From Actinomycetes bacterium (GTDB lineage Bacteria; Actinomycetota; Thermoleophilia; BMS3ABIN01), in NCBI GenBank assembly GCA_024276735.1, contig JAJRWQ010000095.1, positions 1-60,705 on the forward strand: a stretch of DNA of 60,705 nucleotides. Direction: 5' to 3'. Positions 2,603-52,060 of the stretch are shown here, one piece after another. Both the position numbers and the translations under genes were made by a program. The notes below the pieces were generated by a model, which saw only the letters and a list, made by a program, of their open reading frames with translations, ran no database searches and was not told the DNA's origin. Positions within the stretch are counted from its first letter, which is position 1; every line of letters begins with the position of its first letter.

Positions 2603-2632
2603 TTGACAGCCACGGGCGGACGGTGCTATCGT
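2603..2632 (+). promoter_or_regulatory. sigma70-type promoter of the riboswitch operon
   Basis: TTGACA (2603-2608), 18-nt spacer, TGcTATCGT extended -10 (2627-2632). Confidence 0.55.
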
Positions 2633-2649
2633 GCCTGCGACAACTGAAT

Positions 2650-2780
2650 AGCTACCTGCAGGATTCCCGCAAGGGAAACAACGGGGAAGTCCGGTGTATC
2701 GTGCAAGGCACGAGAGTCCGGCGCTATGCCGTAACTGTGAGGCCATGGGCCAAGCCAGAGAACCGGCCTGCAGGCGACTT
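2650..2780 (+). promoter_or_regulatory. cobalamin (B12) riboswitch aptamer
   Basis: AAGGGAAACAACGGGGAAGTCCGG core, GCCGTAACTGT element and B12-box-like GCCAAGCCAGAGAACCGGCCTGC. P1 candidate is CCTGCAGG (2655-2662) pairing with CCTGCAGG (2767-2774). Terminators follow immediately. Confidence 0.8.
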
Positions 2781-2811
2781 TCTTTACACGAGCATGGAGG
2801 AAGAGTCAGTT

Positions 2812-2840
2812 GGCCTTTTCAGCTCGAAAAGGCCTTTTTT
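2812..2840 (+). terminator. intrinsic terminator 1 of the riboswitch expression platform
   Basis: GGCCTTTTC / GAAAAGGCC 9-bp stem, loop AGCTC, then TTTTTT. Confidence 0.8.
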
Positions 2841-2848
2841 GGGAAAAA

Positions 2849-2876
2849 GCCTCTTTCTTCAGGAAGAGGCTTTTTT
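2849..2876 (+). terminator. intrinsic terminator 2 of the riboswitch expression platform
   Basis: GCCTCTT / AAGAGGC 7-bp stem, 8-nt loop, then TTTTTT. It ends 12 nt before the first ATG of the operon. Confidence 0.75.
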
Positions 2877-2888
2877 GGTGGTGAGCAC

Positions 2889-3629
2889 ATGAACAGTGGC
2901 AGGCCCGCAGGCTTCTTGAGGCGCAACCGCGTGCAGCTGCTGGTGCTGGCGGTGGCGCTCTCGATGGCGCTGGTTAGCGGCGCCGTCTACTTCGGTTCCA
3001 GCGCCGGCGGCTTCGACCAGGCGGGCCCCGCCGGCAACGGCCAACTGGATGCCGAAGGCTACACGCTGACCACGGCGGATGCCGCCCCGGACACGTACAC
3101 CGGCACCGGGGACGCTGCCCGTACAGCCGGTGACGGGCAGCCACGGTCAGGCGCCGGGGAACCGGGAGCCGACCCCGGCACCAGCTCTCCGGAAGCAGCG
3201 GCAGGGAGCAGCCCGGGCGATTACGCCGCCCCCTCCTCATCCCCCGCTCCGGGGACAGCAGGCGGCGGGACCACGCCGCCACCCGCGGGGTCAGTAGCCC
3301 CGGGCGGTGGCGCTCCCCAGGGCCTGCCGGTGACGCTGGTGATCGATAGCGGCGCCCGCAGGCTGGAATACTCGTTGCGCGTCGACGAGGGCTCCACCGT
3401 CTTCGACCTGCTGCTCGAAGCCAGCGGCAGGTACGGCTTCAGCTTCGACTACAGCAACAACTCCTCCTACGGCGCCTTCGTGGAGGAGCTGGACGGCGTC
3501 CGCAACGATCCCCGCGCGGGGATGTTCTGGCTCTACTACGTGAACGGCAACTATGCCTCCCTGGGGGCATCCAGTCAAATCCTATCGGAAGGAGACGTAA
3601 TCCTATGGCGTTACCAGTCGACTCGTTGA
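2889..3629 (+). CDS. membrane-anchored DUF4430 (transcobalamin beta-domain-like) protein
   Basis: ATG 2889 preceded by GGTGGTGAG. The longer track ORF from 2694 would overlap the riboswitch and terminators. N-terminal TM (LLVLAVALSMALVSGAVYF), a Pro/Gly/Ala-rich linker, and a C-terminal domain ending ...GAFVEELDGVRNDPRAGMFWLYYVNGNYASLGASSQILSEGDVILWRYQ, typical of DUF4430. Confidence 0.8.
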   Translation: MNSGRPAGFLRRNRVQLLVLAVALSMALVSGAVYFGSSAGGFDQAGPAGNGQLDAEGYTLTTADAAPDTYTGTGDAARTAGDGQPRSGAGEPGADPGTSSPEAAAGSSPGDYAAPSSSPAPGTAGGGTTPPPAGSVAPGGGAPQGLPVTLVIDSGARRLEYSLRVDEGSTVFDLLLEASGRYGFSFDYSNNSSYGAFVEELDGVRNDPRAGMFWLYYVNGNYASLGASSQILSEGDVILWRYQSTR

Positions 3630-5581
3630 GGCCGCCCCGGAGGAAAAGCCTCCCGGTGGCGACCCTGGTCATGATTTCTTTCCTGCTGGCGGCGGCATGC
3701 CTGGCGTTGCTGCCGCACCCGGCGGCGGCGGCACCGTCGTCGGTGGAAGTGCGTATCGAGGCCCCGTCCGGCAGCGTCTGGGACGGCCAGGTGCAGGTGG
3801 ATGGCTGCACCATCACCGACTCCGGCGGCGGCACCCACGTGCTCAGCGGCAGCAAGGCCGCCTGCGCCCTCGCGGCGGCGGCGGCCCAGGGGGGCTTCAC
3901 CTACAGCTTCGCCGACTACGGCTGGGGGCTCTACCTCACCGAGGTGGCGGGCATCACCAGCGACGCCAGCAACTACTGGCTCTACCGCGTGAACTATGTC
4001 TCGCCGCCGGTGGGCCTGGCGGACTACGACCTGGCCGACGGCGACCAAATGCTGCTTTACTTCGGGCCCTGGCCCGACATCCCGCTGGGCGTCGACCTCT
4101 CCGCCGCCAGCGTGGAGGCAGGGCAGCAGTTCACCATCACCAGCACTTACTACGATGACAACCAGGGCACCATCGTGCCGCTGGCAAACGCCCAGGTGCA
4201 CCTGGGGCAGTCGGTGCTCACCACCGACGCCCAGGGCCAGCTCACCACCAGCCTGGCCACGCCCGGTGACTACCAGGTCTACATCGAGAAGAGCGGCTAC
4301 GTGAGAAGCGCGGTGAAACACCTGGTAGTGCTGAAGCCGGTTCCCGACCAGGCCAGCCTCGACCAGGCAGCCCAGGCGGCGCTGGGCTACCTGGAGGCCC
4401 AGCAGGCTACCGACGGCGCCATCGACAACGCCGGTATCAGCGCCTGGGCGGCGGTGGCCTTCAGCGCCGCCGGCGTCGATGCCTCCGGGGTCAGCAACCA
4501 GGGCGCGTCTCTGTTCGCTTTCCTCGCCGGCTACGACCCCAGCGGCGGCAGCTCCACCGACTACGCGCGGCAGATCCTGGCGGCGCTGGCCGCCGGCGGC
4601 GATCCCCGTGCCTTCGGCACCGACCTGGTGGCCGGGCTGCTGGGCTTTCACCAGGACAGCCAGGTCGGTGACACCGGCCTGATCAACGATGACATCTTCG
4701 CGGTGCTGGCGCTGCTGGGCGCCGGCGAGGACGTGAGCTCGCCGGCAGTGAGCGATGCCGTGCAGTACATACTCACCAACCAGGGCGCCGGCGGCGGCTT
4801 CGGCTACGCCGTGGGCGGCAGCGCCGACGTGGACACCACGGCGGCGGCGATCCAGGCGCTGGTGCTCGCCCGCGACGCCGGCTACCCGGACGCGGCCGGC
4901 ATCGACGCGGCGCTGGCCGCAGCCCGCGCCTGGCTGGCAAGCTCCCAGAACGCCGACGGCGGCTTTCCCTACAGCCCCGGCGGACTGTTCGGCGACTCCA
5001 ACACCGCCTCCACCTCCTGGGTGCTGCCGGCGCTGGCGGCGCTGGGCGAGGACGCCTCCACCTGGAGAACCGCCGACGGCTCCACCCCCTGGAGCTACCT
5101 GCTGGAAGCCCAGAACGCCGACGGCTCGCTGGGCTGGATGGCGTCCGGGACGGGCCAGAGCCTGATGACCGCCTACGCCGTTCCTGCTTTCCTGGGGCAG
5201 CCGCTGCCGGTGACCTACCAGCCGCCGGCCTGCTCCGGCAACACTCCCTCCCTGTCGCTCTACGAGGAGGACGTGCGCTGGAACAGCTTCGCCGACTACC
5301 AGGCGCGGCTGCTCACGGTGGACTTCAGCATCCGCAACCGGCCCCAGGGGCCGGGCGCGTACAACACGCGCGTGGTGGGCACCGACAATACCAGCGGCGT
5401 GATCACCGTCACCACCCTGCCGCTGAACCTGGGCGCCATCGATGCCGGCTCGCAGACATCGCTGACCCTGCAGTACCTGGTTCCAGACGGGGTGGCCAGT
5501 TTCCGCACCACCATCTATGCCACCGCCGAGGATGGTTGCGGTAACGGCTACCAGTACCCGCAGGCATGGCCCCATATCTGA
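3605..5581 (+). CDS. large secreted/anchored protein: N-terminal DUF4430, Ig-like/carboxypeptidase-regulatory-like module, prenyltransferase/terpene-cyclase-type alpha/alpha-toroid repeats, C-terminal Ig-like domain
   Basis: Signal/TM segment LVMISFLLAAACLALL. DUF4430-like ...NYWLYRVNYVSPPVGLADYDLADGDQMLLYFGPW. Repeated motifs TNQGAGGGFGY, SQNADGGFPYSPG and AQNADGSLGW are typical of the alpha/alpha toroid. Exact start uncertain (ATG 3605 overlaps the upstream gene by 25 nt). Confidence 0.8.
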   Translation: MALPVDSLRPPRRKSLPVATLVMISFLLAAACLALLPHPAAAAPSSVEVRIEAPSGSVWDGQVQVDGCTITDSGGGTHVLSGSKAACALAAAAAQGGFTYSFADYGWGLYLTEVAGITSDASNYWLYRVNYVSPPVGLADYDLADGDQMLLYFGPWPDIPLGVDLSAASVEAGQQFTITSTYYDDNQGTIVPLANAQVHLGQSVLTTDAQGQLTTSLATPGDYQVYIEKSGYVRSAVKHLVVLKPVPDQASLDQAAQAALGYLEAQQATDGAIDNAGISAWAAVAFSAAGVDASGVSNQGASLFAFLAGYDPSGGSSTDYARQILAALAAGGDPRAFGTDLVAGLLGFHQDSQVGDTGLINDDIFAVLALLGAGEDVSSPAVSDAVQYILTNQGAGGGFGYAVGGSADVDTTAAAIQALVLARDAGYPDAAGIDAALAAARAWLASSQNADGGFPYSPGGLFGDSNTASTSWVLPALAALGEDASTWRTADGSTPWSYLLEAQNADGSLGWMASGTGQSLMTAYAVPAFLGQPLPVTYQPPACSGNTPSLSLYEEDVRWNSFADYQARLLTVDFSIRNRPQGPGAYNTRVVGTDNTSGVITVTTLPLNLGAIDAGSQTSLTLQYLVPDGVASFRTTIYATAEDGCGNGYQYPQAWPHI

Positions 5582-5850
5582 CAGCCCTCGCAGTCCTGCT
5601 TGCGGTAGCGGCGCTGCTGGCGGCAACGTCGCCGGCCCCGGTGGCGGCCGCCGGGGGCGGTCCCGTCGCCGCTGCCGGCAACATGCAGGCGGGCCTGGAC
5701 AGCGGGAGCAACAGCACGGTGACCCTGAACGGCAGCGACCGCCTGTTCGCGCTGGCGATATTCGTGGTTTCCCTGGCGGCCGCCGCCGCGGCAGTAGCCT
5801 CGATGATCACCCGCCGGCAACGGCGGACGACGGAAAGGAGGGATGAGTAG
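5566..5850 (+). CDS. small secreted protein with C-terminal TM anchor and basic tail (94 aa), hypothetical
   Basis: Signal peptide LTALAVLLAVAALLAATSPAPVAAA, C-terminal FALAIFVVSLAAAAAAVASMITRRQRR. Overlaps the previous gene by 16 nt. No LPXTG motif seen. Confidence 0.55.
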   Translation: MAPYLTALAVLLAVAALLAATSPAPVAAAGGGPVAAAGNMQAGLDSGSNSTVTLNGSDRLFALAIFVVSLAAAAAAVASMITRRQRRTTERRDE

Positions 5851-5908
5851 CGCCGAAGCCCGCGGAGACCCTGACCAAGAGCCTTGTACACCGAGAACGG
5901 GAGGTAAC

Positions 5909-6430
5909 ATGGAATACCTATTGATACTACTTGGAGTGGTACTGCGGTTCCTGCCGCACCCGGCCAACTTCGCCCCCATCGCGGCGATCGGCCTCTTCAG
6001 CGGCTGCTACCTGCGGCGGCGCTTCGCCTTCATCCTGCCGCTGGCGGCGATGCTCATCAGCGATATCTTCATCGGCTTCTATTCCTGGCAGGTGATGGTC
6101 TCCGTCTACCTGAGCTTCGCCCTGGTGGGGCTGATCGGCATCTGGCTCAAGGATCACAAGAGCTTCACCACGGTGGCCGGCGGCACCCTGCTGGGCTCGG
6201 TGATCTTCTTCCTGGTGACCAACTTCGCCGTCTGGGCCTTCTGGCCCATGTACCCCCACACCTGGGCGGGCCTGGTCGCCTGCTACGCGGCGGCGATCCC
6301 CTTCTTCAAGAACACGCTGATGGGGAACTTCTTCTACGTGGGCGTGCTCTTCGGCTCCTACGAGCTGGTGCGCCTCTGGCTGCGGCGGCGCCAGGAGCGC
6401 CGGGCACTCGCCGGCGGCACCGCGCATTGA
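5909..6430 (+). CDS. polytopic membrane protein (5-6 TM), candidate vitamin/B12 permease component (DUF6580-like)
   Basis: ATG 5909 preceded by GGGAGGTAAC. MEYLLILLGVVLRFLPHPANFAPIAAIGLFSG... is strongly hydrophobic throughout. Last gene of the riboswitch operon. Confidence 0.75.
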   Translation: MEYLLILLGVVLRFLPHPANFAPIAAIGLFSGCYLRRRFAFILPLAAMLISDIFIGFYSWQVMVSVYLSFALVGLIGIWLKDHKSFTTVAGGTLLGSVIFFLVTNFAVWAFWPMYPHTWAGLVACYAAAIPFFKNTLMGNFFYVGVLFGSYELVRLWLRRRQERRALAGGTAH

Positions 6431-6466
6431 GAGAGCCAGCGTCCTTAGTATCCCGGAAAGGAAAAA

Positions 6467-6506
6467 CCCCCGCTGGGCGAAACGGCCCGGCGGGGGTTTC
6501 GTTTCT
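6467..6506 (+). terminator. intrinsic terminator of the B12 operon
   Basis: CCCCCGCTGGGC / GCCCGGCGGGGG 12-bp stem (one G-U), loop GAAACG, then TTTCGTTTCTC. Preceded by A5. Confidence 0.8.
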
Positions 6507-6615: not shown

Positions 6616-6876
6616 GTGATCAGGTTGGGAAGGACCACCAAGACGATTTACGTCTCCCTCCCCCCGGAGATGATCGAGGAGATCGAGAGACTGGCCAAGG
6701 CCGAAAAGAAAAGCAAGAGCCAGCTCTTTCGGGACGCGTTTTCCGTCTACGCGGAAGTGCAAAGGGAAAGACGCTGGCAGAGTGCCAGGCGCGCCGGTGC
6801 CAGGGCGGCAAGCAGGCTGAAGGTAACCTCGGAGGCAGACATCGACCGGCTGATACACGAGGCAAGGGGTGTATAG
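6616..6876 (+). CDS. ribbon-helix-helix (CopG/MetJ-type) antitoxin
   Basis: TKTIYVSLPPEMIEEIERLAKAEKKSKSQLFRDAF is a classic RHH N-terminus. The likely true start is TTG 6625 (SD GAGAGGTGA, 5-nt spacing). Overlaps the PIN gene by 8 nt. Confidence 0.8.
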   Translation: MIRLGRTTKTIYVSLPPEMIEEIERLAKAEKKSKSQLFRDAFSVYAEVQRERRWQSARRAGARAASRLKVTSEADIDRLIHEARGV

Positions 6877-7285
6877 GGCCGTACTCGATACCAATGCCTA
6901 CGTCTCCGCGGTGATATTTGGCGGCAAGCCGGAAACCCTTTTTCGCCTGTCCTGGCGGCCGCACCGGCAATTCAGGCTCCATGCCTCGCACGAAATCCTG
7001 AAGGAGACCGCCAGGATCCTGGCCGGTGACGAGTTTTCCTTCTACAGGGAAGAGATCACGGCGGTGATCGCCACCATCGCCGCGGCCGCCGAGGTGGTAG
7101 AGCCCGGCGCCCAAGTATCCGTCCTCGCGGACGATCCCGACAATCGAGTTCTCGAATGCGCACTCGCCGCCAGGGCACATTTCATCGTCTCCGGCGATTC
7201 CCACCTCGTTAAACTGGGGGAATACCAGGGCGCAGAGATCGTTAAACCGGCGCGGTTCCTTGCATTGCTGGAAAAAGAACGCTGA
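6869..7285 (+). CDS. PIN-domain toxin (putative RNase) of a type II TA pair
   Basis: MYRAVLDTNAYVSAVIFGG...DPDNRVLECALAARAHFIVSGDSHL carries the conserved acidic PIN residues (D7, D/E in DDPDN, D in SGD). Confidence 0.8.
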   Translation: MYRAVLDTNAYVSAVIFGGKPETLFRLSWRPHRQFRLHASHEILKETARILAGDEFSFYREEITAVIATIAAAAEVVEPGAQVSVLADDPDNRVLECALAARAHFIVSGDSHLVKLGEYQGAEIVKPARFLALLEKER

Positions 7286-7370: not shown

Positions 7371-7628
7371 TCACGCAGCGTGGCCTTCGACATCCCAGCC
7401 CGGGAAGACCAGGACCGCCGGATGACACTTCAGGGCTCGGGCGATCACCTTGGCCCGCTCCACTCCCAGCCTGACCCGGTTGTTTTCAATGGCGGATATA
7501 GTGGACTGGGAAATCCCCGTAAGCTTGGAAAGCTGATTCTGGCTCAAGCCCTGTAGCTATCGAATAATTCTCACGGATTCCCCTACCGTGACCTCAATTC
7601 TCTTTTTTGCCTTCTGGTAGTCCTTCAT
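7371..7628 (-). pseudogene. HigA-like XRE-HTH antitoxin interrupted by an in-frame TAG
   Basis: Minus-strand reading from ATG 7628 (ATGA overlap with the toxin stop): MKDYQKAKKRIEVTVGESVRIIR-TAG(7557-7559)-LQGLSQNQLSKLTGISQSTISAIENNRVRLGVERAKVIARALKCHPAVLVFPGWDVEGHAA-TGA (7371). The stop sits where HTH_XRE proteins have E/K/Q in helix 1. Confidence 0.75.
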
Positions 7629-7909
7629 TTTCTTCTCCGGTAATCGTGCGCGGTTACGTCGATGACCTCTACCAGGACCCGCTGTGCCTCTACACGGTAA
7701 ATTACCCGGTAGCCCAAACCCAGCCTGGAAGACCTATGGCCTCTCCACTTTCCCTTCAGGCTCTCGTCGTGAAAACCTTTTATCAGGCGCAGTCCCGAAG
7801 GGCCTGAAACCATGACGATATCTTTCCATTTCTCGTAGAGCTTCAATACTTCCCGCGGCGCCTTCCTGAGAGATTTATCTGCCCTCCTGTGCTCATACAC
7901 CTCCCACAT
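7625..7909 (-). CDS. RelE/ParE-superfamily toxin (HigB-like, toxin-first arrangement)
   Basis: 94 aa. ...KGKWRGHRSSRLGLGYRVIYRVEAQRVLVEVIDVTAHDY fits the RelE/StbE-type C-terminal pattern. It lies upstream of an XRE-HTH reading frame. Confidence 0.75.
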   Translation of the reverse strand: MWEVYEHRRADKSLRKAPREVLKLYEKWKDIVMVSGPSGLRLIKGFHDESLKGKWRGHRSSRLGLGYRVIYRVEAQRVLVEVIDVTAHDYRRRK

Positions 7910-8025: not shown

Positions 8026-8101
8026 TGGTGGAGGATAGGGGATTCGAACCCCTGACCTTTTGGCTGCCAGCCAAACGCTCTCCCAGCTGAGCTAATCCCC
8101 C
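8026..8101 (-). tRNA. tRNA-Ala (anticodon GGC)
   Basis: Reverse complement GGGGGATTAGCTCAGCTGGGAGAGCGTTTGGCTGGCAGCCAAAAGGTCAGGGGTTCGAATCCCCTATCCTCCACCA folds as a cloverleaf. Anticodon loop CTGGCAG, G3:U70 alanine identity pair, encoded CCA. Confidence 0.93.
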
Positions 8102-10179: not shown

Positions 10180-10608
10180 CTACTCGAAACCCAGGTAAGC
10201 CAGCATGGTAAAGAAGATGGCGGTGATCACGCCCAGCGCTCCCGCCGTGTGCAGGATCAGCCGCCCGTACTTGAAGCGGGTGATCACCGAGTTGTAGAAC
10301 AGCGGGAACAGCATCAGGAACGGCGGGAAGATCAGGAACGTGAAGGCGATGCCGATGTTGCGCGGCACGTACTTGAGGATCTGGTAGACGGTGAGGAAGT
10401 ACCACTCGGGCTTGATGCCGACGGGCGTCTTCAGCGGGTCGGCGGGAGCGCCCATGGGCATCGGCATCAGCGTCGCCAGGAAGCTGACGATCGCCAGCAC
10501 CAGCGCCACCACCGACATCTCCTTGATGAAGTGGTCGGGGAAGAACGGCACCCCGCCTTCCTGGTGGCTGTCCTGGTTTCTCTGCGTCTGGTCTGCCATC
10601 TGCATCAA
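10180..10608 (-). CDS. cytochrome b C-terminal part / subunit IV (PetD-like)
   Basis: ...DHFIKEMSVVALVLAIV...PVGIKPEWYFLTVYQILKYVP contains the PEWYF motif of subunit IV. Confidence 0.88.
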   Translation of the reverse strand: MMQMADQTQRNQDSHQEGGVPFFPDHFIKEMSVVALVLAIVSFLATLMPMPMGAPADPLKTPVGIKPEWYFLTVYQILKYVPRNIGIAFTFLIFPPFLMLFPLFYNSVITRFKYGRLILHTAGALGVITAIFFTMLAYLGFE

Positions 10609-10627
10609 CTCTCCCCGTCACCCGTAA

Positions 10628-11311
10628 TTATAGCGGATCGGCGATGCCCTGCTTGCGCACCATCAGGAAGTGCAGCCCCAGGAGCACCGAGATGGCGATC
10701 GGCAGGATTATCACGTGTATGGCGTAGAAACGGCTGAGGGTGGCGTCGGCGATCTTGGTGCCACCCAGCAGGAAAGTCTGGATTTCGGAACCCACGAAGG
10801 GCATGGAGCCGGCGATCTCGCTGCCCACCTTGGTGGCCCAGTAAGAAAGCTGGTTCATGGGCAGCAGGTAGCCGGAGAAACCAAAAGTCACCGTGGTGAA
10901 GAAGAGGATCACGCCGGTCATCCAGTTGAGCTCGCGCGGCGGCCGGTAGGCGGCGTGGAAGAACACCCGCAGCATGTGCAGGATCACCATCAGGATCATG
11001 ATGTTCGCGGTCCAGGCGTGCAGGCTGCGGATGAAGACGCCGAAGGGCACGTCCTCCATGATGTGCAGCACGCTGCTGTAAGCCTGGTCGATGGTGGGCT
11101 GGTAATAGAACGCCAGCAGGATACCGGTGAGCGCCTGGATCAGGAAGGCCAGGAAGGTAATGCCACCGAAACAGTAGAGCCAGTTTACGTGGGCGGGCAC
11201 GTTGTGCCCGGCGAACTCGGACACCACCCGCCGCATGTCGAAGCGCTCGTCGAAGAAATCGGCGACGGCCGTCCACGCCCGCTTGAAGATGTTCCCCTTC
11301 TCACCCGCCAT
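10628..11311 (-). CDS. cytochrome b6-type (split cytochrome b, N-terminal four-helix part)
   Basis: Two His pairs in RSLHAWTANIMILMVILHMLRVFF and YAIHVIILPIAISVLLGLHFLMV. NWLYCFGGITF and GYLLPMNQLSYWAT are typical b6/b motifs. Confidence 0.92.
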   Translation of the reverse strand: MAGEKGNIFKRAWTAVADFFDERFDMRRVVSEFAGHNVPAHVNWLYCFGGITFLAFLIQALTGILLAFYYQPTIDQAYSSVLHIMEDVPFGVFIRSLHAWTANIMILMVILHMLRVFFHAAYRPPRELNWMTGVILFFTTVTFGFSGYLLPMNQLSYWATKVGSEIAGSMPFVGSEIQTFLLGGTKIADATLSRFYAIHVIILPIAISVLLGLHFLMVRKQGIADPL

Positions 11312-11826
11312 TACTTCTTTTCCTCCGTTTCGATGCCCTCGACGAAGATGCCGTCACCCTCGACCTTGACCTTCAGCTTGGTGAGCGGCCGCGGCGGCGG
11401 GCCCGAGATCACGTCGCCTTGGGGGGTGAACTTGCCCGCGTGGCAAGGGCAGTGATAGATGCTGTTCCGCGTCTCCCACTTGACGATGCATCCCAGGTGG
11501 GTGCAGACGCGCGAGACCGCCACGTAGCTGCCATCCTCCATCATCAGCAGCTGCGAGGGAATCTCCTGGTAATCGAACTTCACGCCCTCGTCCAGCGGCT
11601 TCAGCTGGCCCACCGTGGCCACCTTTACCTTCTCGAACACCTCTTCGCCCACCACGGGATAGGCGTAGCGCACCAGCGGCGCCCCCAGGGCCGCCAGGCC
11701 CATGGTGGCGGCGCCGGCGAACGAAATGGTCAGGAACCGCCGCCGGGTGAGCCCCTTCTGGTACTCTTCGTCGGCCCCGGGCTGCTGCCCGCTCGTCCCT
11801 GCCTGTTTTTCCTTGTCCTCGCTCAT
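11311..11826 (-). CDS. Rieske [2Fe-2S] protein with Tat signal
   Basis: Start ATG 11826 (ATGA overlap with the multihaem gene stop). TRRRFLTISFAGAA twin-arginine signal. CTHLGC and CPCHAG cluster-binding boxes. The longer track ORF upstream of 11826 overlaps the multihaem gene. Confidence 0.9.
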   Translation of the reverse strand: MSEDKEKQAGTSGQQPGADEEYQKGLTRRRFLTISFAGAATMGLAALGAPLVRYAYPVVGEEVFEKVKVATVGQLKPLDEGVKFDYQEIPSQLLMMEDGSYVAVSRVCTHLGCIVKWETRNSIYHCPCHAGKFTPQGDVISGPPPRPLTKLKVKVEGDGIFVEGIETEEKK

Positions 11827-12962
11827 TTCTTCGATAGTCTCCTGCGCCGTGGCTTCAGTACGCCCTGGTGGAAGAGGAATACCAGCAGGCTGGCGCTCGC
11901 CAGCAGGTAGGCGATCCAGATGGTCACCGGCCCGATGCTGTGCTCGCCCTCGGTGGCGCTGGACACCACCTCGATCACCTTCACGAAGGCGTACACGTCC
12001 GTCGCCAGCACGATTACTGCCAGGCCGGCCGCGATCCAGCCCTCGAAGATGAAGCGTTTCACCTTCGGGTAGGGCACCAGCGTCACCAGGAAGATGCCGA
12101 TCACCAGCCCGAACATGGTCAGCGGTGCCGCGCTGGCCTCCTGGGTTTCGTTGGCCACCGAGAACTCCGGCACCTCGGCCGAGTGGCAGCTCTTGCAGTT
12201 CTTGGCCTTGTAAGGCTCGTCGTGGCAAGCCATGCAGGTCTTCTTCTCGATCTGGTCGTAATGCTCTCCCTTGTACTCGCCGGGGCCACCGGCAAAGCGC
12301 CAGTGAATGTTACGCCAGATGGCGGTATCGATCTTGGGAACACCGGGATGCTCGCGCCCGGAAAGCTTGATGTTGCCGAAGAGGATGGGCGCGATGTCGC
12401 CGGTATGGCAGTTGGCGCAGAACTCGGGATCCAGCTGCGCCTGCGGCTTGTCCACCAGCTCCGCCCCGTGGACGATGCCCGAATGGCAGTCGGCGCACTT
12501 GAGGTTGGCGGTCTCGATGTGGAACTGGTGCGGGAAATAAACGGTGCTGGCGGCGTCCTCGCCCTCGCGCACCGGGAAGTACTTGGGATCCAGGTAATTG
12601 TCGGCGCCGGGGGTGATCACCCCGTCGTGACAGCCCTTCTGCAGGCAGGCGGAATTGGTGAGCAGCTCGGTGGTGGGCGGCTTGCGCTCGTACTGGCCGG
12701 TACCGTACTCCACCAGCTTCATCAGGGAGTAGATCTTGCCCCGGCCGTAGCCGATGACGCCGGGCTCGAAGTGGCAATCGATGCACTCGACGCCCGCCTG
12801 GCCCATGGCGGACTGCTTCCAGGTGTCCACGTAGGGCTGGATGATGTGGCAGCTGTCACAGAAGTCGGAGCTGCTGGTGTAGTCGATCCCCCACACCGTG
12901 AGCCCGATGATGACGATGAACAGCACCAACAGCGCTGCAGCGAGTATCGATCTTCCCTTCAT
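11823..12962 (-). CDS. membrane-anchored multihaem cytochrome c (NapC/NirT/NrfH-like N-terminus, extra C-terminal TM helices)
   Basis: Six CXXCH motifs (CDSCH, CIDCH, CADCH, CANCH, CMACH, CKSCH) plus one CX4CH-like CLQKGCH. N-terminal TM and about three C-terminal TM segments. Confidence 0.88.
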   Translation of the reverse strand: MKGRSILAAALLVLFIVIIGLTVWGIDYTSSSDFCDSCHIIQPYVDTWKQSAMGQAGVECIDCHFEPGVIGYGRGKIYSLMKLVEYGTGQYERKPPTTELLTNSACLQKGCHDGVITPGADNYLDPKYFPVREGEDAASTVYFPHQFHIETANLKCADCHSGIVHGAELVDKPQAQLDPEFCANCHTGDIAPILFGNIKLSGREHPGVPKIDTAIWRNIHWRFAGGPGEYKGEHYDQIEKKTCMACHDEPYKAKNCKSCHSAEVPEFSVANETQEASAAPLTMFGLVIGIFLVTLVPYPKVKRFIFEGWIAAGLAVIVLATDVYAFVKVIEVVSSATEGEHSIGPVTIWIAYLLASASLLVFLFHQGVLKPRRRRLSKK

Positions 12963-49553: not shown

Positions 49554-50264
49554 TCAGCGGCGCCGGCCCATTCCCGCCCGGCGTCCCCGCAGCGGCCGGC
49601 GGCGCGGCGGCCGCGGCGGCCGGTCGTCACGCAGGATGATGGCGATGCGCACCACCCGCTGCACCGCCGGCGATCCGGCGCCCAGCGCCGCCAGCGACTC
49701 CACGATCTCCTCCGGCCTGGCAGTCCCCTCGCCGGTGACCTTCATGGTGAACTCGATGCCGGCACCGTCCGCCAGTGGCCGCACCGACCGCACGTACTGC
49801 TTGACGTCGATCTCCTTGTCGCCCTTGGGACGGCGGCGCAACACCTTGAACTCCGGGGCCTCGCCAAAACGGTCACAGGCCTCGGCGAGCCCCGGCAGCG
49901 GCTCCCGGAAACTGATGCGGTAGTTGACCGCTTCCACGCGGGCCGCCGACTTGGAGTGATCCCAGGTGGGGCCCACCGACTTGAGGGTCATGCCCTCGGG
50001 GAGCTCGGCGCCCAGCCGGGAAGCCAGCTCGTTGAGCGGCGCCCGCTGCGCCAGGGCGAAATCGCAGATCTCGTCCTCGCCTTCCACGCCCACCCCCAGC
50101 GGCATCGCCAGGCTGAGTATCGGCTTGGGGCGCATGCCCTCCGTGTAGGCCAGCCGGAAGCCGGCCCGCCGCACCGCCCGCACCAGGCAGCTCAGGGTGT
50201 CCAGGTGGGAGACGAAGCGGGCGCGGCCCTTCTTGGAAAAATGCATGCGGTAATTGAACTTCAT
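49554..50264 (-). CDS. TIGR03936/DUF2344-type radical-SAM-associated protein
   Basis: Start ATG 50264 (ATGA overlap with the upstream stop). MKFNYRMHFSKKGRARFVSHLDTLSCLVRAVRRAGFRLAYTEGMRPKP is the family N-terminal signature. Confidence 0.85.
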   Translation of the reverse strand: MKFNYRMHFSKKGRARFVSHLDTLSCLVRAVRRAGFRLAYTEGMRPKPILSLAMPLGVGVEGEDEICDFALAQRAPLNELASRLGAELPEGMTLKSVGPTWDHSKSAARVEAVNYRISFREPLPGLAEACDRFGEAPEFKVLRRRPKGDKEIDVKQYVRSVRPLADGAGIEFTMKVTGEGTARPEEIVESLAALGAGSPAVQRVVRIAIILRDDRPPRPPRRRPLRGRRAGMGRRR

Positions 50265-52060
50265 TGCCCTCCCAGCACCATCTCGATCTCTCCCTCGCAG
50301 ACGCCGCACAGGCTGCAGTCGCCCCCGCGGCAGTCCACGGTGGCCTCGCCCCGCAGCGCCTTCTCCCTCTCCGCCAGCAGGAACTCCCGGTCCAGGCGGG
50401 AATCGATATCGTCCCAGGGAAGCGGCGCCGAAGTCTCGAAGCTGCGGCCGGCGGCCTCCTCCACGGTGGTGCCGATGACGGCGAAGCCCTTCTCCCAGGC
50501 GGCGAAGTCGAACTGCTCCGTCCAGGCATCGAAGCGGGCGCCCGCCCGCCAGGCGGCCTCGATCGCCCGCGCCGTCTCGTCACCGCCCCGGGTGATGGCG
50601 CCCTCCACCAGGCTGGCATCCACGTCGTGGAAGCTGAGCTTGATCTGCTTGCGCGGCATCTTCTCCCGCAGGAAGGCCTGCTTCTCCTCGATGCCGGCGC
50701 GCGGCTCCATGCCGTCCCACTGGAAGGGCGTGTGCGCCTTGGGCACGAAGGAGGCCACGCTGACGTTGATCCGCACCCTGCCCCGGTTCGCCGCCCGCTG
50801 CCTGCCGATGCGGCGGGCGCGCACGGCGACGTCGACGATGCCTTCCACGTCCTCCATGGTCTCCGTGGGCAAACCGATCATGAAGTAGAGCTTGACGGTG
50901 GTGCAACCCAGCTCGAAGGCGGCCTCCAGGGAGGCCTCGATCTCCCGGTCGCTCACCTGCTTGTTGATCACGTCCCGCAGGCGCTGGGTGCCGGCCTCGG
51001 GGGCGATGGTGATGGAGCCCCGGCGCTGCGAGATCAGCTCCAGCATGCGGATGGAGTCCGGGTCGACCCGCAGCGACGGCAGCGAGACCGTGAGCCCGGG
51101 ATGCGACTGGGCCAGGCGGCGGATCACCTCGCGAATGCCGCTGTAATCGGTGGTGGAGAGCGAGCTGAGCGAAACCTCGTCGTAGCCGGTGTTGGCCACC
51201 AGCTCCTCCACGGCGGCCACCACTTCCTCCGGGGACTGCTCCCGCACCGGCCGGTACCAGTTGCCGGCGAGGCAGAAACGGCAGCCGCGGGTGCAGCCGC
51301 GCATGATCTCCAGCGTCGCCCGGTCGTGCACCGCCGCCATGGTCGGCACCACCGGCCGCAGCGGCAGGTAGCGGCGCTCCACTGCCGGCGCTACCGCCCG
51401 CTGCACGGTCCCGGTGATCCCCGGCACGTAGACGCCCGCGATCGACGCCAGGCGCTCCAGCAGCCGTTGCCGCCCCCGGCCGCGCTCCTCCTCGCAGGCG
51501 CGCACCACCGCGGGCAGCACCGCCTCGCCGTCGCCGATGATCATGAAATCGAAGAAGGCGGACATGGGATGCGGATTGCTGGCACAGGGCCCGCCGGCGA
51601 ACACCAGGGGATCGTCCTCGCCGCGGTCCTCGCGGTGCAGGGGGATCCCCGCCAGGTCCAGCATCTCCAGCACGTTGCTGTAGGTGAGCTCGTACTGGAG
51701 GGTGATGCCCCAGAGGTCGACTTCCCGCACCGGCTGCCAGCTCTCCAGCAGGAAGAGCGGCACCGACTCCTCGCGCATCAGCGCCGCCATGTCGGTCCAG
51801 GGACAGTAGACCCGCTGGGCCCAGGCGTCGGTGGTTTCGTTGACAAGGCTGTAGAGTATCTGGACCGCCTGGTTGGCGGTGCCGATCTCGTAGACGTCCG
51901 GGTAGCTCAGCGCCACCCGCAGCGAGTAATCTTCCTTGACGACGCTGCCGACTTCGCCGCCGATGTAGCGGGCGGGTTTCTCCACCCTCTCCAGGAGGGC
52001 GTCGATTGCTGTCTGGATTCCCTGGGACAAGATCTCTCGTTCATCTCGTTCCGGGCGCAA
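50261..52060 (-). CDS. TIGR03960-type radical SAM protein (B12-binding-like N-domain plus radical SAM core)
   Basis: VEKPARYIGGEVGS near the N-terminus. CxxxCxxC cluster motif in MRGCTRGCRFCLAG. Confidence 0.88.
   Translation of the reverse strand: MRPERDEREILSQGIQTAIDALLERVEKPARYIGGEVGSVVKEDYSLRVALSYPDVYEIGTANQAVQILYSLVNETTDAWAQRVYCPWTDMAALMREESVPLFLLESWQPVREVDLWGITLQYELTYSNVLEMLDLAGIPLHREDRGEDDPLVFAGGPCASNPHPMSAFFDFMIIGDGEAVLPAVVRACEEERGRGRQRLLERLASIAGVYVPGITGTVQRAVAPAVERRYLPLRPVVPTMAAVHDRATLEIMRGCTRGCRFCLAGNWYRPVREQSPEEVVAAVEELVANTGYDEVSLSSLSTTDYSGIREVIRRLAQSHPGLTVSLPSLRVDPDSIRMLELISQRRGSITIAPEAGTQRLRDVINKQVSDREIEASLEAAFELGCTTVKLYFMIGLPTETMEDVEGIVDVAVRARRIGRQRAANRGRVRINVSVASFVPKAHTPFQWDGMEPRAGIEEKQAFLREKMPRKQIKLSFHDVDASLVEGAITRGGDETARAIEAAWRAGARFDAWTEQFDFAAWEKGFAVIGTTVEEAAGRSFETSAPLPWDDIDSRLDREFLLAEREKALRGEATVDCRGGDCSLCGVCEGEIEMVLGGQ

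Follow-up and report, generated by a model that had tools for sequence, protein, structure and literature searches.

A cobalamin riboswitch-controlled operon encoding transcobalamin-like surface proteins and a DUF6580 membrane protein, a candidate B12 capture and uptake system

For most prokaryotes, the membrane components of B12 uptake have yet to be identified (PMC6072759), and the systems described to date provide several points of comparison for the locus reported here, a cobalamin riboswitch-controlled operon on a contig of 60,705 nt (JAJRWQ010000095.1, positions 1 to 60,705; assembly GCA_024276735.1) from an uncultured Thermoleophilia-like actinobacterium. This whole stretch of DNA is hereafter referred to as the window, or the 60-kb window. 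The energy-coupling factor (ECF) transporter ECF-CbrT transports cobalamin and cobinamide, and hemin is not a competitor (PMC5997447). BtuM, a solitary S-component-like B12 transporter of Proteobacteria, was predicted from co-localization with btuB and from B12 regulation (PMC6072759). Burroughs, Balaji, Iyer, and Aravind (2007) described SLBB and toroid domains joined in either order, accompanied by a second SLBB paralog, and predicted that they scavenge B12 together with CbiO/CbiQ (PMC1796856). Finally, Lsa1836-1840 of Lactobacillus sakei has been studied genetically and assigned to heme, and its authors report no riboswitch (bioRxiv 10.1101/864751).

The operon shares features with each of these systems. 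Four co-oriented genes lie 3' of the riboswitch and encode an anchored DUF4430 protein, a DUF4430-toroid protein, a 94-amino acid (aa) membrane protein, and a DUF6580 protein. We consider it likely that this operon, repressed by B12, allows its host to capture and import cobalamin or related corrinoids. The Obg GTPase encoded in the window shares 62-66% identity with proteins labeled by NCBI as belonging to Thermoleophilia metagenome-assembled genomes, which places the host among uncultured actinobacteria, and its envelope would be monoderm. A first-pass annotation, made from the sequence alone, had described a promoter, a B12 riboswitch, two terminators, and four co-oriented genes, all of which are present:

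2603-2632, forward strand: sigma-70-like promoter (TTGACA, 18-nt spacer, TG-extended TATCGT), a sequence match to consensus alone
2643-2785, forward strand: cobalamin riboswitch aptamer RF00174 (clan CL00101), from cmscan against Rfam
2812-2840, forward strand: intrinsic terminator 1 of the expression platform, from a terminator scan and the minimum-free-energy fold of 2636-2882
2849-2876, forward strand: intrinsic terminator 2, from sequence and fold, immediately 5' of the gene 1 ribosome-binding site
2889-3629, forward strand: gene 1, 246 aa, anchored, with a linker and a C-terminal DUF4430 domain (SLBB, transcobalamin-beta-like; PF14478)
3605-5581, forward strand: gene 2, 658 aa, exported, with a signal/anchor, DUF4430/SLBB, immunoglobulin (Ig)-like, toroid, and beta-sandwich regions
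5566-5850, forward strand: gene 3, 94 aa, hydrophobic near its N-terminus (signal or anchor), with a C-terminal membrane helix and a basic tail
5909-6430, forward strand: gene 4, 173 aa, DUF6580 membrane protein (PF20221, E 5e-54)

The boundaries given previously stand in part: position 2603 is indeed the start of the promoter, but gene 1 begins at 2889 rather than at the open reading frame (ORF) boundary at 2694, and gene 4 likely begins at 5909 rather than at 5843.

Evidence for a B12-related function comes from the genomic context of DUF6580. We surveyed 80 DUF6580 loci, one genome per species, and counted features located upstream of the DUF6580 gene on the same strand; SLBB domains were counted with a search model built from Pfam-verified domains. 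The loci are mostly from the Candidate Phyla Radiation (CPR)/Patescibacteria, with a few from Bacteroidota and Ignavibacteriota, and they represent the closest matches to a single subfamily of DUF6580, such that the following proportions may not hold family-wide, a point that weighs against extending them to DUF6580 in general:

64 of 80 loci, same strand: DUF4430 ORF upstream of DUF6580
31 of 80 loci, same strand: toroid protein upstream of DUF6580
At least 27 of 80 loci, same strand: cobalamin-clan riboswitch (RF00174, RF01482, or RF01689) at the gathering score upstream of DUF6580

Co-occurrence of DUF6580 with B12 riboswitches is thus seen in the survey. The count of 27 is a lower bound, as the upstream sequence is cut short in 7 loci and at least one true site escaped the gathering-mode filters. 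Many of the toroid-carrying loci are riboswitch-controlled, and all 10 of the 10 small ORFs tested between a riboswitch and DUF6580 encode N-terminally anchored DUF4430 proteins. Elsewhere in the surveyed ~700 kb, one further riboswitch was found, in locus L049; this AdoCbl-II riboswitch (5633-5710, forward strand) is downstream of the DUF6580 gene and presumably controls the next gene.

Close relatives of the operon (loci L001, L002, and L003) retain the order DUF4430, DUF4430-toroid, optional small ORF, and DUF6580, and a riboswitch is located at the equivalent position in L001 (36.9 bits in a smaller permissive search, having been missed in the gathering-mode batch) and L002 (51 bits). An SLT-domain gene is upstream of the operon in both the window and L001, and a tRNA-Ala(GGC) at 8026-8101 of the window (reverse strand) has a counterpart with the same Rfam score (68.5 bits) at 11525-11597 of L001 (reverse strand), downstream of the operon; because the SLT-domain gene and tRNA are common to both, the two contigs look syntenic. 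Some homologs (L014, L017, and L083), including CPR proteins such as that of L014, have the toroid preceding DUF4430/SLBB, which is the order found in transcobalamin. In several CPR operons, the genes for the toroid and anchored DUF4430 proteins are separated by one for a further secreted protein of ~170-200 aa (L014 3503-4015, L027 2177-2788, and L044 3507-4007), for which no confident Pfam match was obtained.

In diderm taxa, the partners of DUF6580 are different. The riboswitch operons of L029, L045, and L066 begin with a gene for a TonB-dependent receptor, followed by PF01902 and BtuF-like Peripla_BP_2 genes where present, and then by DUF6580. No BtuCD was found in these three riboswitch operons, and the genes 3' of DUF6580 are unrelated. 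The PF01902 gene (Diphthami_syn_2, PP-loop ATPase-like) lies between the receptor and DUF6580 genes at 2713-3402 of L029, where the BtuF-like gene separates it from DUF6580, and at 3752-4441 of L066, where it is directly 5' of DUF6580. We know of no B12-related role for the PF01902 family. The use of DUF6580 with a TonB-dependent receptor by diderm Bacteroidota and Ignavibacteriota contradicts the earlier suggestion that the system is specific to a Gram-positive envelope. On the other hand, the central proposal of the first-pass annotation, namely a B12-riboswitch operon combining transcobalamin-like surface proteins with a membrane transporter, agrees with the conservation of this gene set alongside cobalamin riboswitches across distant phyla. 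SLBB, toroid, and DUF6580 proteins are linked to B12 regulation and to B12-type receptors, and a role for them in B12 capture and uptake is well supported by comparative genomics.

Within the window, the riboswitch is placed between the sigma-70-like promoter and the two terminator hairpins. The promoter matches 10 of 12 consensus positions in a consensus scan, with 4 sigma-70-like sites being observed in the scanned 4.7 kb versus 0.4 expected. The RF00174 match, which had been foreseen near 2640-2790, is full-length (model positions 1-189) and scores 43.0 bits (gathering score 31.5; E 1.6e-7); Rfam detects no other riboswitch in the window. Terminator 1 comprises a hairpin at 2812-2834 with a 9-bp stem (GGCCTTTTC/GAAAAGGCC) followed by TTTTTT. 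Terminator 2 has the stem GCCTCTT.../...AAGAGGC with its core at 2849-2870 and TTTTTT at 2871-2876, and forms a 15-bp hairpin in the fold. The 247-nt leader (2636-2882) folds more stably than 200 of 200 shuffles (z = -3.5). In our model, the leader would act as a ligand-responsive switch operating on the two terminators. The ATG at 2889, the first start codon past terminator 2, is preceded by GGTGGTGAG and is the start of gene 1.

Gene 4 encodes the candidate transporter. Its most likely start is the ATG at 5909, which has GGGAGG 5 nt upstream and is the start used in the database entry and in homologs, rather than the alternative at 5843. The DUF6580 profile matches 6,333 cluster representatives at 50% identity (E up to 0.001), and the NCBI name for a DUF6580 protein is "putative transport protein." An AlphaFold2 model of gene 4 (pLDDT 85) has seven helices, counting the loop-1 helix, and its best Foldseek matches in the PDB are all ECF S-components (FolT, RibU, ThiT, and PanT; TM 0.50-0.56, probability up to 0.97), albeit with E-values of 0.3 or higher that are not significant alone and that count against the assignment. 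A single-sequence search of gene 4 against the PDB returned no match, and CbrT was reached by the family profile alone. The DUF6580 profile has one match in the PDB, 6fnp_A (E 0.006), the 182-aa membrane chain of 6FNP, which is the ECF-CbrT vitamin B12 transporter from Lactobacillus delbrueckii (PMC5997447). Its S-component-like size, together with the membership of the matched fragment in Pfam ECF_trnsprt (PF12822), leads us to identify this chain as CbrT.

The relationship to S-components extends to domains of the PF12822 type that are fused to toroids in other Actinomycetota (see below). An hhalign comparison of DUF6580 with these fusion S-domains covers 138 columns (probability 86.5%, E 4.6e-6), and the two share motifs (PxNFxPI vs PNVKPTTDI; SDxFIGF vs SNxFFGQ). 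ECF_trnsprt (PF12822) is cross-matched by 6 of 120 DUF6580 family members, and in the L085 fusion a single stretch is matched by DUF6580, ECF_trnsprt, and ECF-ribofla_trS. Judged by these profile matches, gene 4 is a divergent ECF S-component whose sole sequence relative of solved structure is the B12-specific CbrT. The "permease" of the first-pass annotation is thus upheld as a membrane transporter candidate and can be specified further. The proposed structure and profile comparisons did return S-components (FolT, RibU, ThiT, and PanT by fold and CbrT by profile), but not BtuM. Invariant polar residues of DUF6580 (R13, H17, and N20 in the loop joining helix 1 to helix 2; S51, D52, Y67, N105, Y115, and E152) may line a binding site. 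An invariant, His-containing loop in DUF6580 has the sequence RFLPHPANF. No cysteine occurs among the invariant or nearly invariant columns, and the one Cys present in gene 4 is not shared across the family.

Like the S-component of ECF-CbrT, gene 4 appears to be a small, six-helix, S-component-type protein, with a shared loop-1 motif (PANFAPI in gene 4 vs PNVQPVTDI in CbrT) and with cobalamin/cobinamide as its predicted substrate class. It differs in belonging to Pfam DUF6580 rather than ECF_trnsprt, in having no EcfA, EcfA', or EcfT in the operon or the 60-kb window, and in being accompanied by extracellular SLBB and toroid proteins under riboswitch control. The resemblance to BtuM is of another kind: both are small proteins found without an ECF module, of S-component fold in BtuM and putatively so in gene 4, and the context of DUF6580 in L029, L045, and L066 is of the same type as that from which BtuM was predicted. 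However, there is no detectable sequence similarity between them, and no conserved DUF6580 residue corresponds to the cysteine with which BtuM ligates cobalt. The identification of gene 4 as a BtuM was rejected, given that BtuM is absent from its profile and fold matches and that it has no conserved cysteine.

The surface proteins encoded by genes 1 and 2 correspond to what had been described from the sequence, namely a membrane-anchored DUF4430 protein and a 658-aa exported protein combining DUF4430, toroid, and Ig-like modules. Gene 1 has a single N-terminal hydrophobic segment (residues 18-36), a 115-residue linker rich in G/A/P/T/S, and a C-terminal DUF4430 domain (E 6.6e-16; 59 bits vs the PF14478 threshold of 23.8). 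Gene 2, which overlaps gene 1 by 25 nt, comprises a signal/anchor (residues 18-36), DUF4430/SLBB (~45-155; E 1.5e-7, 32.1 bits vs the same threshold of 23.8), an Ig-like region (~160-243), the toroid (~249-536), and a C-terminal beta-sandwich (~550-651). These regions are supported by Pfam and by an AlphaFold2 model with a mean pLDDT of 92, and full-length homologs share 42-69% identity. The entire beta-domain of human transcobalamin (residues 330-407) is covered by the alignment with the gene 2 DUF4430 domain, which matches the isolated-domain chain 5no0 over residues 29-107 (E 1.9e-4). DUF4430 is thus homologous to the B12-binding beta-domain of transcobalamin, and we propose that the SLBB domains of genes 1 and 2 bind corrinoid outside of the cell.

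Gene 3, which overlaps gene 2 by 16 nt, had been described as a small anchored protein, in agreement with its 94 aa and two hydrophobic segments. It has no Pfam match, and its sole homolog, a weak one, is the equivalent ORF in L001 (E 8e-5). In L002 and in CPR, a C-terminal membrane anchor is built into the gene 2 homolog itself. A conjectural role for gene 3 is that of a small membrane adaptor or a detached anchor for gene 2.

This combination of surface proteins is close to that predicted by Burroughs et al. in 2007, with an SLBB-toroid fusion (the toroid being C-terminal here), a second SLBB protein in the operon, Ig-like domains, and secretion or anchoring. The partner is different, being CbiO/CbiQ in that study and a stand-alone DUF6580 protein with an explicit riboswitch link here and in CPR. 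The CbiQ/ABC version was nevertheless recovered in three loci, L084-L086, which encode an SLBB-Ig protein, a DUF4430 protein, CbiQ, a double ATP-binding cassette (ABC) ATPase, and a fusion of an S-component to a toroid. Distant homologs of the gene 2 toroid are fused in this manner to an S-component domain (ECF_trnsprt, ECF-ribofla_trS, or DUF6580), with the S-domain being followed by an additional membrane helix, such that the fused toroid lies outside of the cell. The L084 operon begins with a cobalamin riboswitch (73.6 bits). A cob(I)alamin adenosyltransferase gene (PF01923; L084 7503-8120, reverse strand) is located two genes past this operon on the opposite strand. As gene architectures, the S-toroid fusions tie the toroid functionally to the S-component.

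We suggest the following model for the operon. At high intracellular B12, the riboswitch would fold and the two downstream terminators would halt transcription, whereas at low B12 the four genes would be transcribed. The SLBB domain of gene 1, on a long flexible tether above the membrane, would capture corrinoid, and the SLBB domain and alpha/alpha toroid of gene 2 would bind it extracellularly, akin to the alpha/beta clamp of transcobalamin. The corrinoid would then be handed to gene 4, the predicted six-helix DUF6580 relative of CbrT, and be carried across the membrane by S-component-type movement. As regards energy coupling, gene 4 would most likely be solitary like BtuM and lack a dedicated EcfA/EcfT, although it may use a shared module encoded elsewhere. 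Gene 3 would probably contribute as a small membrane adaptor or anchor. An ORF at 50261-52060 of the window (reverse strand) encodes a B12-binding radical SAM protein of the TIGR03960 family (E 4.8e-190), and the genome thus has at least one likely B12-dependent enzyme.

Several observations weigh against this model, some of which concern the toroid. Its membership in the toroid superfamily is supported by PF00432 (31.4 bits vs a threshold of 26.5), but a profile of the region most strongly matches drimenyl-diphosphate synthase (7xq4; E 4e-36) and squalene-hopene cyclase (1gsz; E 1e-33) in the PDB, and also matches prenyltransferase beta subunits and the TED domains of alpha-2-macroglobulin/complement. 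No transcobalamin alpha-domain is among the best 60 of the 74 PDB matches of this profile, and Pfam Cobalamin_bind (PF01122) is not matched by gene 2 at E up to 0.1. In terms of profile matches, the toroid is accordingly a relative of class II terpene cyclases and prenyltransferases that lacks detectable similarity to the transcobalamin alpha-domain. Moreover, DVDTT at residues 408-412 of gene 2 (window 4826-4840) fits DxD[D/T]T at the position of the cyclase DxDD, and the best whole-model Foldseek matches of gene 2 are alpha-2-macroglobulin and complement proteins (E 3.5e-10, TM ~0.29), with transcobalamin not being among the best 50. Beyond the toroid, the binding and transport role of DUF6580 is a prediction from sequence, and solitary CbrT failed to support B12-dependent growth of Escherichia coli without the ECF module (PMC5997447), such that a CbrT relative such as gene 4 may need a module encoded outside of the 60-kb window.

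The statement in the first-pass annotation that gene 2 contains both halves of the transcobalamin fold should therefore be narrowed to homology in the beta-domain and a common fold class, as the toroid sequence matches cyclases and prenyltransferases rather than the alpha-domain. Like transcobalamin, intrinsic factor, and haptocorrin, gene 2 combines an alpha/alpha toroid with a beta-grasp SLBB domain, the latter being homologous to the transcobalamin beta-domain. It differs from them in a toroid that is not detectably Cobalamin_bind, in Ig-like insertions, in membrane association, in having a putative transporter as its partner, and in domain order, with SLBB-Ig-toroid being the reverse of the alpha toroid followed by the beta domain.

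One alternative is that the toroid protein is an extracellular enzyme or an alpha-2-macroglobulin-like envelope protein whose link to B12 is regulatory only. The strong cyclase matches, the retained DVDTT, and the whole-model matches to alpha-2-macroglobulin and complement all speak for it, yet we find it very hard to credit. The resemblance to alpha-2-macroglobulin/complement can be traced to the co-occurrence of Ig-like domains and a toroid in both, and a thioester function of this kind was rejected for gene 2, whose sequence has no CxEQ (C[GL]EQ) motif. Gene 2 also has an export signal and extracellular-type domains, and its toroid is fused to an SLBB domain. In addition, other lineages fuse the toroid directly to an S-component on the outer side of the membrane, the transcobalamin order toroid-SLBB also occurs (L014), and toroids are found at about 31 of the 80 DUF6580 loci, many of them under riboswitch control. 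The DVDTT-type motif is conserved across the toroid family, with DxDDT in the ECF-fused homologs, even though the toroid of gene 2 is exported and probably non-catalytic.

The substrate could also be something other than a corrinoid. Import of heme or another non-corrin tetrapyrrole has been proposed for Lsa1836-1840 of L. sakei, where an S-component, an ECF module, and transcobalamin alpha/beta-like proteins are linked to heme uptake (bioRxiv 10.1101/864751), and this precedent weighs against our interpretation. The two operons are alike in combining an S-component with separate transcobalamin alpha-like and beta-like proteins, but that of L. sakei differs in its own ECF module and its heme assignment. 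Heme import by the present operon seems highly improbable to us, considering the cobalamin-clan riboswitches at 27 or more of the 80 loci and in L001, L002, L084, and the window, the cobalamin adenosyltransferase gene near the L084 operon, and the failure of hemin to compete for ECF-CbrT (PMC5997447). Alternatively, gene 4 may import cobalt or a B12 building block (alpha-ribazole/dimethylbenzimidazole, as CblT does) rather than a complete corrinoid. Such a function would be compatible with the invariant His-containing loop of DUF6580 and with the control of cobalt and precursor transporters by cobalamin riboswitches (PMC3766115), but it is unlikely. The partners of DUF6580 are of B12-binding type (SLBB, BtuB-like receptor, and BtuF-like binding protein), and the nearest solved relative of gene 4 transports cobalamin and cobinamide (PMC5997447). 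Furthermore, most carriers of DUF6580 are CPR bacteria. The small genomes of CPR usually lack cofactor biosynthesis, and cobalt or a lower ligand would for this reason be useless to them.

A further alternative concerns energy coupling and is a variant of the capture and import model itself. Gene 4 could be an ordinary group-II ECF S-component that works with a shared EcfA-EcfA'-EcfT module encoded elsewhere, with import being ATP-driven as in ECF-CbrT and with the same capture proteins. That CbrT is the closest solved relative of gene 4, that CbrT alone is inactive in E. coli (PMC5997447), and that operons of related Actinomycetota encode a DUF6580/CbrT-like domain alongside CbiQ and a double ABC ATPase make this possible, although we lean toward doubting it. 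Using phmmer with CbiQ and two ECF-type ABC ATPase queries, we found no EcfT/CbiQ or ABC ATPase match in the 60-kb window. None of the 80 loci had a CbiQ/EcfT match, and an ABC ATPase match occurred near L052 alone. In diderm operons, moreover, DUF6580 occurs beside a TonB-dependent receptor and a periplasmic binding protein, the context that identified the module-independent BtuM, and helix 1 of gene 4 has no alanines, which is weak evidence in the same direction. Because a module was found neither near the 80 loci nor in the window, we favor action without a dedicated ECF module, but only weakly, given the inactivity of solitary CbrT in E. coli. The remark in the first-pass annotation that neither BtuFCD nor ECF-CbrT is encoded accords with the absence of an EcfA/EcfT module and, for BtuFCD, with the lack of an ABC ATPase match in the window and the other domains carried by the operon genes, but it overlooked that gene 4 itself is a divergent S-component related to CbrT.

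The genes surrounding the operon have other predicted functions. Directly 3' of it is a toxin-antitoxin pair comprising ribbon-helix-helix (CopG) and PIN-domain proteins (6616-7285, forward strand), with the operon ending before this pair. A second pair follows at 7371-7909 (reverse strand) and encodes an HTH_3 protein and a 94-aa protein without a Pfam match. At 10180-12962 (reverse strand), a respiratory cluster encodes a NapC/NirT-type multihaem cytochrome c, a Rieske protein, a cytochrome b, and a cytochrome b6/petD-like subunit.

The system had been put forward as uncharacterized, which is correct as regards experiments on the operon itself, but the surface half was predicted in 2007 (PMC1796856) and the L. 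sakei homolog has been studied genetically. What is already known thus consists of that surface half and of the characterized ECF-CbrT and BtuM transporters. In the openly searchable literature, we found no paper naming DUF6580 and nothing relevant on a cobalamin riboswitch in combination with a prenyltransferase, or on a Patescibacteria cobalamin riboswitch in combination with a transporter. The candidate B12 transporter genes on a list from September 2026 are btuB, btuFCD, bacA, cbrT, and ecfA/T only, and DUF6580 is not among them. The new element is DUF6580 as a CbrT-related, probably ECF-module-independent, putative corrinoid transporter with transcobalamin-like capture proteins that is widespread in CPR.

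A broader reading, which we advance tentatively as quite possible but short of probable, is that DUF6580 constitutes a large, previously unrecognized family of corrinoid transporters that derive from S-components, act independently of ECF ATPases, and receive their substrate from extracellular carriers, these being SLBB/toroid proteins in monoderms and CPR and BtuF-like proteins in diderms. If this is true, DUF6580 would be the main route of B12 entry in CPR/Patescibacteria and some Actinomycetota, and would be the first transporter of S-component type to rely on a separate protein for substrate capture. Import of corrinoid by DUF6580 and its SLBB partners would fill a gap in B12 uptake for CPR/Patescibacteria and part of the Actinomycetota. 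It would also improve predictions of B12 auxotrophy and cross-feeding from metagenomes, and would provide a bacterial model for the hand-off of B12 from a transcobalamin-type clamp to a transporter.

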